From Octopus vulgaris (lineage: Eukaryota), in contig OX597814.1 of NCBI GenBank assembly GCA_951406725.2, forward strand, positions 201,190,001 through 201,254,000: a stretch of 64,000 bases of DNA, given 5' to 3'. Below the pieces are notes generated by a model, which searched no databases, was not told where the DNA came from, and worked only from the letters and a program-made list of their open reading frames with translations. This document shows, piece after piece, positions 18,243 through 62,706 of this stretch. Each line of letters begins with the position of its first letter. Position 1 is the stretch's first letter. The position numbers were made by a program, and so were the translations under genes.

Positions 18243-18388
18243 TTCAAAAAATACCTTAGGAACGAGAACCCAGGTTTGAAATTTCCCTAAGACACCTGAT
18301 GAGGGCTGGAGGGTATATCAGGCGAAACGTGTTTACAACAAACAAGATGAGGACAAATATCCATCAAATGTGAATAATGTAAATAATG
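18125..18388 (+). mobile_element. tRNA-headed SINE with (AAT)n linker and hammerhead-bearing Penelope-type tail (family E)
   Basis: A box tggcatagcgg, B box aagttcgattcc, (aat)n, then gacac-CTGATGA-gggctg..caggc-GAAAC. Homologous copies at 33699-34119, 40100-40333 and 63710-64000. Confidence 0.8.
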
Positions 18389-25439: not shown

Positions 25440-25725
25440 ATATATATGCATATATATGTACATATATGTAAATACTTAGATCTATACGCATATCTATAAG
25501 CATATGTGGGAACAGGACATTATGAAACATGTACAAGGCATGAGTACATGGAACATGAACTTTTCTTTCAAACAACGAAAGACACAAATGGAAAACAAAA
25601 CAAACAACAAATGACCCTTCATCAGTTGTTGGCTGTTTTTCTAGTCTCGTATTTTGAGCATTTAACAACAATATATGCTTTTGATTATCATATTATATGA
25701 TTGAACACCACGCATCCTCTCAACT
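25440..25725 (-). mobile_element. Penelope-like tail fragment (family F) with a rearranged hammerhead
   Basis: Shares blocks with 44325-44810 (gttgttt..agaaaa, tgtcctgt.c.ca.atatgc). An inverted piece of the family's 3' end sits at 25686-25725. Confidence 0.55.
25609..25678 (-). ncRNA. Candidate non-circularly permuted hammerhead ribozyme, decayed copy
   Basis: gcataTA-ttgttg-tt-aaatgctc-[A]AAA-tacg-(16 nt)-caacaa-CTGATGA-a-gggtcattt. See findings. Confidence 0.55.
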
Positions 25726-42770: not shown

Positions 42771-42817
<47 letters not shown>

Positions 42818-42818
<1 letters not shown>

Positions 42819-42889
42819 CAACTACAAATAAGGGTATCTGAAAGACACCGGCATGCTGGTGTCTCTCAGACACCCTTATTTATAGTTGT
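42818..42889. repeat. 72-bp spacerless palindrome
   Basis: 36-bp arms with 4 mismatches, centred on gca|tgc. Confidence 0.9.
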
Positions 42890-42974
42890 AAAAAATTATT
42901 ACCTTTGTATGGTATATATTCCCATGCTGGCCACTTGATATTATCAATATTTAAATATCGATATTATCCTTATT

Positions 42975-43037
<63 letters not shown>

Positions 43038-43950
43038 TTATTTATATATATATATTTATATTTAAGATCTTCAAATTGTAAATTTTAATATTGTATAAGT
43101 CTTTGGTGTAATAATATTTTCCTTATTTAAATATCGTTGTTTATGTAATGATCTAATTATCGTAATTTTCAATATTATTAGATATTAAATTTAAGTTTAT
43201 TCGTAAGATACTACTTAGCGATAGATTTGTTATTTGATAGCAAGCATACGAGGTGTATTAAGTTAGGCTTTTGTATATACATGTTTTAATAGTATTAATT
43301 GTAGTTTTAAATTTATAATTAAATTAGATAAACTTTGATAAACTTAGATATGTTTCGACTAAAGATTGGTCCAGGCCATGTCTAATTTAATAGCATAACT
43401 TAGTTATTTCTTTAAATTGATATTCGCTAGTTATTCCCATTGATAATTATATTTATAGTATTTATAGTATTTATTCGATACTATATTACTACGAATTGAT
43501 TATTTCTATAAGTATTTTACATAAGATTTCCGAAAGTTCGTTTAAGTTTGTTTATTTGTATTTTGAAATTAGCTATTTCATCTTTCAATATGAAAACTTA
43601 ATTTATTAGGTTTTTATTATATGTGAATATATATTTATTTATAGAGATTATTTTAGATCTTAATATTTATATACATTTATATATTTTCATTGATAATTTA
43701 TATATATTAGTCATTTTTAAATATTTATGTAATTAGATATAGACTAATACCGATATTAGATTATTGGTGGGTTTCCTACCTTATAAATTAATATTAATAT
43801 TTAACATTATAGTCGACTTTGATATAATCATAATTGTTAAGTTTTATGTTTCTAGTTTGATAATAGAGTTTGTTATAAGTAAAATTATTATATTATTTAT
43901 ATTTTAAAAATATTGTTTAAATATTTCTGATTATATTTTAGATATTTCAA

Positions 43951-44023
43951 TTAACCTGAAGATTGACTGTAACCATAACTCGAATTATTACGAATTGTAC
44001 AGCCATGAGACGATCGTAGTGTT
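43951..44023 (+). ncRNA. Decayed type I hammerhead in a PLE-like remnant (~43035-44170)
   Basis: CTGAAGA-ttgactgta..tacagccat-GAGAC-gatc-GTA. The GAAA box is mutated, and stem III is the palindrome ACGATCGT. Confidence 0.55.
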
Positions 44024-44252
44024 TTACTCTTTATCTTTTATTAAACTTTTAATACTTTTGATATATATTTAAAATAATATAAATTAATTAATTTTATGTA
44101 TTGGCTTATGTTTTTCATTGTTTGATTTGCCCAATAGTGGTTTTATCTCTAATTTAATATAATATTATATAATATATTTATACTATAAAATTGGATTTAA
44201 TCCTAAATCTGATTTTTCCCTGTAAGTTTGGATTTATTCCCTAATATTTTAT

Positions 44253-44326
<74 letters not shown>

Positions 44327-44482
44327 CGTTCGTAATACTTTTTTCCGTTCGGCTTAACAGCCCTTCTTGTCTTGTTATTTTCCTTGTCCTGTCTTTTACT
44401 GTTTATATTTTGTACTGTCGTTACTGTCCTGTTTTTGTTACCATTTTTACCCCTCCGCAAAAAGATCTCAAATTTTATTGTA

Positions 44483-44564
44483 TTTGCTTTTCGCAGGAAG
44501 GAAAGTTTCTTCGAAATGTAGAGTAGATGAAACCATGGCGACTGAAGAAGGGTTTTTTTTCCTT
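44483..44564 (+). ncRNA. Candidate non-circularly permuted hammerhead ribozyme (family F)
   Basis: tttgctTT-tcgc-agg-aaggaaag.tttc.ttc-GAAA-tgtaga-(15 nt)-gcga-CTGAAGA-a-ggg.tttt.ttttcctt. Confidence 0.55.
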
Positions 44565-44806
44565 GTGTTATTTGTCCTGTACTCTATTTTTTTGTTGTTT
44601 AAGAAAAATGTCCAGTTTGTGTCTGTGTTTTCGTTTCTCATTGTGTTCGACGTTTTTTTGGTGTCCTGTACTCATATATGCGTGTATATATACATGTAGA
44701 GGTAGGTACGTACATATATGTATATATATATATATATGCATATGTTTTATTTATTAATATATTATATGACGGAACGCACACATCCCTTTCTAAGTAAGAT
44801 TGCTCT

Positions 44807-44869
<63 letters not shown>

Positions 44870-62632: not shown

Positions 62633-62706
62633 TGGCCAGCCATGAGACTTGAACTCACATCTCTATGATTACATGTCAAGTGCTTTACCACTAAGCTAAA
62701 CTGCCC
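62633..62706 (-). tRNA. tRNA-like sequence, probably a pseudogene; anticodon position reads TGT (Thr)
   Basis: gggcagt/gctggcc acceptor, gctt/aagc D stem, gtgag-ttcaagt-ctcat T arm, A and B boxes, and a T5 run 8 nt downstream. Position 33 is A and the anticodon stem is imperfect. Confidence 0.5.

Follow-up and report, generated by a model that had tools for sequence, protein, structure and literature searches.

A permuted hammerhead motif of type SGC in ORF-less Penelope-like repeats of Octopus vulgaris, and a copy of it broken by deletion

A non-circular hammerhead of type SGC (HRIMA-1 and its variants) was described from metatranscriptomes by Eckert et al. 2023 (PMC10085705, accessible text), and the minimal type I hammerheads of Penelope-like elements (PLEs) are, in the available portion of Cervera and de la Pena 2014 (PMC4209133), described as dimers with a 'usual bulged base'. 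According to the accessible text of Craig et al. 2021 (PMC8557442), the Naiad PLEs lack canonical hammerheads, with eight 'half cores' marked, and PLE hallmarks include partial tandems, inverted 5'-truncated copies, a 30-40 nt tail and microsatellite targets. Animal non-LTR retrozymes, in turn, have been proposed to be non-autonomous derivatives of PLE pseudo-LTRs (bioRxiv 10.64898/2026.07.22.740005, accessible text). For an Anolis PLE, insertion in vitro did not depend on the hammerhead, which itself required protein (PMC11167929). A literature search for SGC or otherwise rearranged hammerheads in retroelements, subscription papers and the supplements of PMC10085705 and of the bioRxiv preprint aside, found only PMC10085705. 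The SGC topology is already known, and what is new, with respect to the accessible text of that paper, is its presence in an animal retroelement.

The DNA analysed, here called the window, is a stretch of 64,000 nucleotides from the genome of Octopus vulgaris. We consider it quite probable from comparative sequence analysis that the locus at 44483-44564 belongs to a copy, broken by a deletion, of an ORF-less Penelope-like repeat whose intact copies carry an SGC hammerhead that would cleave the element's own transcript. The features referred to below are as follows.

44323-44808, plus strand: 5'-truncated copy of repeat family A (end of an ORF-less Penelope-like unit), about 490 nt, between two (TA)n runs
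44454-44497, plus strand: upstream hairpin P0, whose 3' arm contains the S block of the first-pass annotation
44483-44494, plus strand: the cleavage block of that annotation, rejected here (pair test: 116 of 500 shuffles as high)
44494-44497, plus strand: splice-acceptor-like CAG/G, bordering the ribozyme domain on its 5' side
44498-44509, plus strand: 5' strands of helices a (partner 44557-64) and b (partner 44529-33)
44509-44510, plus strand: site of a private 26-nt deletion, the breakpoint being ambiguous by a base or two
44510-44520, plus strand: G block, i.e., remnant of a stem II strand, GAAA and a stem III strand (C15.2 replaced by U)
44521-44536, plus strand: AGUA and the 3' strand of the stem III extension, helix b
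44537-44553, plus strand: C block, i.e., stem I strand GGCGA, CUGAAGA, an extra A and a stem II strand
44768-44808, plus strand: 'tail' of about 40 nt, found at the 3' end of some copies only
25613-25678, minus strand: copy 1 (family B), an S-G-C motif with the S block present, 54.0 bits with model R1

Comparison with other family-A copies, of which a search of the octopus's own 2.8-Gb genome turned up 3,173 first-look candidates (the 40 that were scored being 80-89% identical), reveals what the window copy has lost. In 27 of 29 other aligned copies the true S block, UACG-UC or UGCG-UA followed by UCGCC, lies between the bases corresponding to 44509 and 44510; the two exceptions are L030, with a larger deletion of its own, and L020, with a partial one. 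The 26-nt deletion in the window removed this block, the 5' strand of stem I, the linker and half of a stem II strand, and the exact junction that it left has a single match in the genome. In the relatives, the missing UACG-UC pairs with GAAA-CGUA to form stem III and the missing UCGCC pairs with the GGCGA preceding CUGAAGA to form stem I, and a subfamily with UGCG-UA opposite CGCA represents a compensatory change. Further, in the minimum-energy fold of the window copy, 44489-93 form a helix with CGAAA that locks away the GAAA catalytic box. As the S block is gone and this box is sequestered, the window copy is predicted to be inactive. An Rfam scan of the window returned no hammerhead match at E<=5. 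Elsewhere in the window, 62634-62705 on the minus strand match a tRNA at 38.5 bits, above the Rfam gathering score, and 42800-44240 hold a repeat rich in A and T that includes a long hairpin near 42817-42890; ends related to this repeat adjoin family-A copies at L021 and L033.

Copy 1 retains all three blocks, with a predicted cut after A25672, but its G12 is changed to A and one stem III pair is broken; a genome search with its family, B, gave 2,702 candidates. Search patterns that specified only the G and C blocks, leaving the S block unspecified, had 93, 2,034 and 2,459 matches in the genome as against 0 in reversed controls, which puts G and C blocks in this order far above chance; the matches fall into no fewer than eight diverged families (A-H). 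Although it was no part of the patterns, the S block stood where it was expected in 24 of 30 loci and in 16 of 24, in some with single mutations. Of the 14 loci without it, 13 break off at a 5' junction or an inversion no more than about 15 nt from the site (L118 is unclear), and one locus without it, L180, has an internal deletion. From these sets, L074, L076, L098 and L099 were excluded by eye as G..C matches without an S block, and L091, L092 and L094-L096 as unclear; rows whose C block had been forced into a mutated form by the first search pattern were likewise kept out of the alignment. Among the excluded loci, L074, L076 and L098 are palindromic repeats in which CUGAUGA-A-GGG is followed by a local CCC stem, and they possibly represent another hammerhead-bearing family with an inverted arrangement.

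In alignment A7 (21 rows), 95.5% of cells are paired and 9 of 14 pairs show double changes, with 49 such cells; none of 500 shuffles was as high in percent paired and slid controls gave 35-61%, though the rows of A6-A8 are hand-picked, mostly intact and related by descent, and the shuffle counts are not probabilities. The companion alignment A6 is 95.2% paired, with double changes in 10 of 15 pairs, and in A8 pairing reaches 100% in stem I, 98.3% in stem III and 98.0% in stem II. Stems I and III each show double changes in four of five pairs (A7). Stem II, paired at 92.9-98% across A6-A8, comprises four pairs of which one or two are G.U, two are invariant and one shows a double change. Its register includes a bulged base, namely the one extra A that follows CUGAnGA in the intact copies; a register without this A, starting on an A.C pair, was set aside because it breaks in families B and D. 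Neither A6 nor A7 shows any variation at U16.1, G12-A15.1, C3-A6, G8, A9 or G10.1-C11.1, the U16.1-A15.1 pair is U-A in 24 of 24 and 21 of 21 rows respectively, and H17 is never G in either alignment. The intact copies thus have the conserved core (CUGAnGA, GAAA, U16.1-H17 and the A15.1-U16.1 pair), with predicted cut triplets GUC, GUA, AUA, GUU or AUC. The block order is SGC, which is none of the canonical circular orders CGS, GSC and SCG. By anatomy, the motif of the intact family copies would be a type-SGC hammerhead.

With model R1, the two window copies score 54.0 and 35.9 bits, whereas a metagenome scan yielded 119 pattern matches, the best of the 80 listed reaching 16.6 bits, which we treat as chance. 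Both hammerhead block orders coexist in the window: canonical-order minimal type I hammerhead cores occur at 18296 and 40242 (plus), 33790 and 63795 (minus) and 63994 (plus, cut by the window end), all in copies of another repeat and with an extra base after CUGAUGA.

The repeat that carries the SGC motif occurs as (TA)n-flanked, 5'-truncated and often inverted copies, with or without the tail of about 40 nt, and as head-to-tail ORF-less units of about 0.8 kb, as at L014, which holds two ribozyme domains; in tandem copies the tail runs on into the start of the next unit. On these PLE hallmarks it can be classified, from its sequence features, as a putative non-autonomous Penelope-like element. 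No autonomous partner of families A-G was found: the copies examined have no ORF, and in L001-L090 the 1.5 kb around the unit contain no PLE ORF that is joined to it. An ORF of Neptune type (RT/GIY-YIG) at L109, first suggested as the parent by L077 and L109, was rejected: 28 of 30 loci with the Neptune endonuclease carry their own, different, canonical-order motif, the G..C pattern occurs in only two of the 30, one of them L109 itself, and L109 holds its SGC piece as a nested insertion. The Neptune piece adjoining L069 and L110 is a separate insertion. This Neptune-type PLE (L109, L184-L213) is itself young and very abundant, with 17,726 first-look candidates of which 150 were scored at 97-100% identity, and ends in a canonical-order minimal hammerhead (e.g., L186 2831-2847). 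The core of that hammerhead reads CUGUUGA, A6 being replaced by U, in five aligned copies and in the upstream repeat of L109.

Octopus Naiad 3'-end fragments are present in the genome itself (L097, L148/L214). In a search upstream of outlying motifs, the Naiad-like 3' fragment L214 proved to have no ORF left, and no ORF was seen by eye at L215-L217. A further S-G-C-like motif lies at 5080-5160 of L093/L215, where the upstream flank resembles the octopus Naiad end, and probably belongs to a second decayed Naiad family. In the accessible part of the consensus supplement of PMC8557442, the S-G-C order with clean stems I and III can be discerned by eye at the 3' ends of Naiad_Obim, Naiad_Ovul, Naiad_Esco and three Acropora Naiads, the names being assigned from record order, as well as in two unnamed records of that file; stem II looks weak or absent by eye in several of these ends (squid, coral). 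[quoted passage not shown] SGC and CSG are circular permutations of each other. For the CTGATGA core these readings take in 60 of its 62 places and for six other cores the first five places each, besides part 25 of the supplement; by eye, the remaining places are mostly coding sequence or canonical motifs, and many Naiads show no motif in the parts covered.

The distribution of insertion 5' ends offers a view of what the motif may do. Of 48 unique sites among the matches listed, 40 have their 5' junction in a zone of 10 positions at the predicted cut or 3' of it, and the other eight in the 21 positions 5' of it. Again among the matches listed, junctions with (TA)n fall in that 10-position zone in 20 of 23 cases with the family A pattern and 20 of 25 with the E/F/G pattern, these junctions having been counted by eye over the first 100 of 987 and of 639 matches. 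On the minus strand, the totals among the matches listed, one row per site, are 125 at the predicted cut as against 35 at an upstream and 15 at a downstream anchor, control anchors which differ in conservation. Junctions within a base of the predicted bond are seen at L078, L164, L166 and L167, and inversions turn at stem I in L063 and L160. Most junctions, however, lie 5-9 nt 3' of the bond rather than at it, and trimming of the end must therefore be assumed. The pile-up 0-9 nt downstream of the predicted cut suggests cleavage in vivo; a stop of the reverse transcriptase at a structure is another possible explanation.

A mechanism along the following lines can be envisaged. Head-to-tail transcripts would be cut at the motif to release unit-length or 3'-end RNAs, which an autonomous Penelope-like element acting in trans, with Naiad as the candidate, may then copy into (TA)n by reverse transcription; the cut end would then become the 5' end of the insertion after loss of 0-9 nt. 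With stem III extended by helix b and only 0-3 nt left to stem I, cleavage would require either melting of helix b or an exchange of C blocks.

Of the sequencing runs, none is registered as RNA. Contigs of two runs from two studies (X4, X6) join a host exon, with donor G/GTGAGT, to the family-A acceptor CAG/G just 5' of the ribozyme domain, and read through the S block; the joint lies at L183 1501-1526 (G000:C6:11093601) and at L003 1667. For one host transcript, the element's own RNA aside, this suggests sense RNA that has been spliced and whose site is uncut, and it is possible that exonisation has placed the ribozyme domain into a host transcript. Contigs of four presumed-RNA runs share no common ends, and a dip in depth near the predicted cut in contigs of such runs was not counted as evidence.

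Around the core, the families conserve an additional set of helices. The closing helix a and the hairpin P0 flank stem III and helix b; P0 is 92.3% paired, with double changes in three of four pairs, in the same 13-row alignment as was used for the S block of the first-pass annotation. In families A-D stem III continues past an internal loop, AGUA/GAA, which we take to be loop-E-like, into helix b, itself 76.4% paired (two families being one column out of register) with double changes in three of seven pairs. Between helix b and the stem I strand there are 0-3 nt only. Given the shape of the hammerhead, this seems too short for a core formed within one molecule, and helix b appears to conflict sterically with such a core. 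Whether the core closes by melting of helix b or by a swap of the C block between two copies we judge about equally probable either way. Folding z-scores, computed without pseudoknots, are unremarkable at -0.32 to 0.80. For a helix 'I' that would connect the flanks of stem I with those of stem II, only 3-4 possible pairs are seen by eye, and the flanks where it would form are taken up by helices a and b.

This rod of P0, a, b and stem III could alternatively be the entire functional structure, a conserved non-catalytic fold serving as a docking or stop signal for the reverse transcriptase, or a hammerhead relic, with the hammerhead boxes kept for protein binding or by descent. Such a rod is just what the minimum-energy fold of intact L003 recovers, the core being absent from it; it would also agree with the short connection of helix b to stem I and with a junction peak lying off the bond. 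Yet stem I, for which a rod has no place, is the fully paired helix with double changes in most of its pairs, the catalytic nucleotides and U16.1-H17 are kept across families whose mean column identity is 70%, and Naiads of other phyla show this core again, in two orders (accessible supplement of PMC8557442). We accordingly rate a rod devoid of catalysis as unlikely and favour the self-cleaving SGC hammerhead.

The first-pass annotation, in contrast, had drawn a rearranged hammerhead on the window copy as it stands. The letters and pairings that it quoted are present, including intact GAAA (44513-16) and CUGAAGA (44542-48) boxes and an 8-bp pairing of the stem II arms, AAGGAAAG/UUUUCCUU; it was also right that the helices covary between the families of the two window copies. 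The rearranged order it proposed is real, as S-G-C, in both copies, but in 44483-44564 the S block was misassigned. Its stem I (UCGC 44491-94 with GCGA 44538-41) and stem III (six of seven pairs, two of them G.U, with a U.U mismatch next to the core) do pair, each with the wrong 5' strand, and the 3-nt linker is likewise misassigned, so that the match to the linker lengths of copy 1 compared non-homologous segments. The supposed cleavage block is the 3' arm of conserved P0, shows no covariation across families and, in the 13-row cross-family alignment, is 68.7% paired as against 67.1% when shuffled. Its suggestion of a likely active ribozyme here conflicts with the deleted S block and with the pairing of the GAAA box in the minimum-energy fold. 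Thus, while a 4-bp stem I and a 6/7 stem III can be drawn between intact boxes, it is very improbable that the window copy is itself an active hammerhead with cleavage block 44483-44494 and a cut after U44490: that segment belongs to a P0 arm without covariation, the U.U mismatch falls beside A15.1-U16.1, the minimum-energy fold pairs 44489-93 with CGAAA, and the deleted junction is unique in the genome and was therefore never amplified.

Equally hard to credit is a canonical order assembled across tandem units (C from unit n, G from unit n+1 and S from a later one), which would make the rearrangement only apparent: units do occur head to tail and PLE hammerheads are described as dimers (accessible text of PMC4209133), but the S-G linker of 3-6 nt and the local pairing of stem III and helix b place S before G within one unit, and a two-copy swap yields SGC and CSG cores, not CGS.

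The self-cleaving SGC reading has wider implications, if borne out. Tentatively, and with somewhat less than even confidence, we propose that mirror-order hammerheads (SGC, CSG) are the missing ribozyme of Naiads and their non-autonomous derivatives in molluscs, cnidarians and nematodes, with thousands of genomic copies, the SGC form being a domain-swapped dimer which would cut only multimeric transcripts and set the 5' ends of insertions. For Penelope-like elements thought to be ribozyme-less, the predicted motif would explain the apparent absence, and it would offer an answer to the puzzle of Naiads that 'lack canonical HHR' and have 8 'half cores' in the accessible text of PMC8557442. Non-circularly permuted RNAs have so far come from a few hundred environmental sequences that lack a host; a set from animal genomes, spread over several families, would supply one, along with a likely job and natural variation on which structure work can draw. 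The pile-up of 5' junctions would, moreover, be a rare genomic sign of a PLE ribozyme acting in vivo, a role that is disputed. Rfam-type standard hammerhead searches miss the whole class, and hence counts of animal ribozymes are probably low.

Set against the known systems, the octopus motif resembles type SGC of PMC10085705, as far as the accessible text of that paper describes it, in its S-G-C block order, full conserved core, stem I of 5-6 bp and two pseudoknots, with a linker between stems I and II of 3-6 nt here and about 3 nt there. It differs from that type in residing in the DNA of a high-copy animal retroelement, in the extra A after CUGAnGA, in having no clear 'I' helix around the C block and in its stem III extension, closing helix and upstream hairpin. 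With the PLE minimal type I hammerheads, on the available portion of PMC4209133, it shares its location close to the 3' end of a PLE-type repeat, high copy number, a bulged base at the start of helix II and a possible dependence on dimers; those hammerheads, however, are canonical C-G-S with a palindromic mini stem III, whereas the octopus motif has a non-circular permutation and a full stem III of 5 bp. The carrier repeat is like the Naiad PLEs of PMC8557442, within its accessible text, in (TA)n targeting, tail, tandems and inversions, and by eye its motif has the same S-G-C order as the ends of Naiad_Obim and Naiad_Ovul, although the examined copies of families A-G show no ORF that could encode the N-terminal GIY-YIG, CxC linker and C-terminal RT of a Naiad. 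Finally, like the animal non-LTR retrozymes, it consists of non-coding tandem units with a hammerhead; the accessible text on these retrozymes (bioRxiv 10.64898/2026.07.22.740005) does not contain the term 'SGC', and the units described here, at about 0.8 kb, carry the permuted motif.
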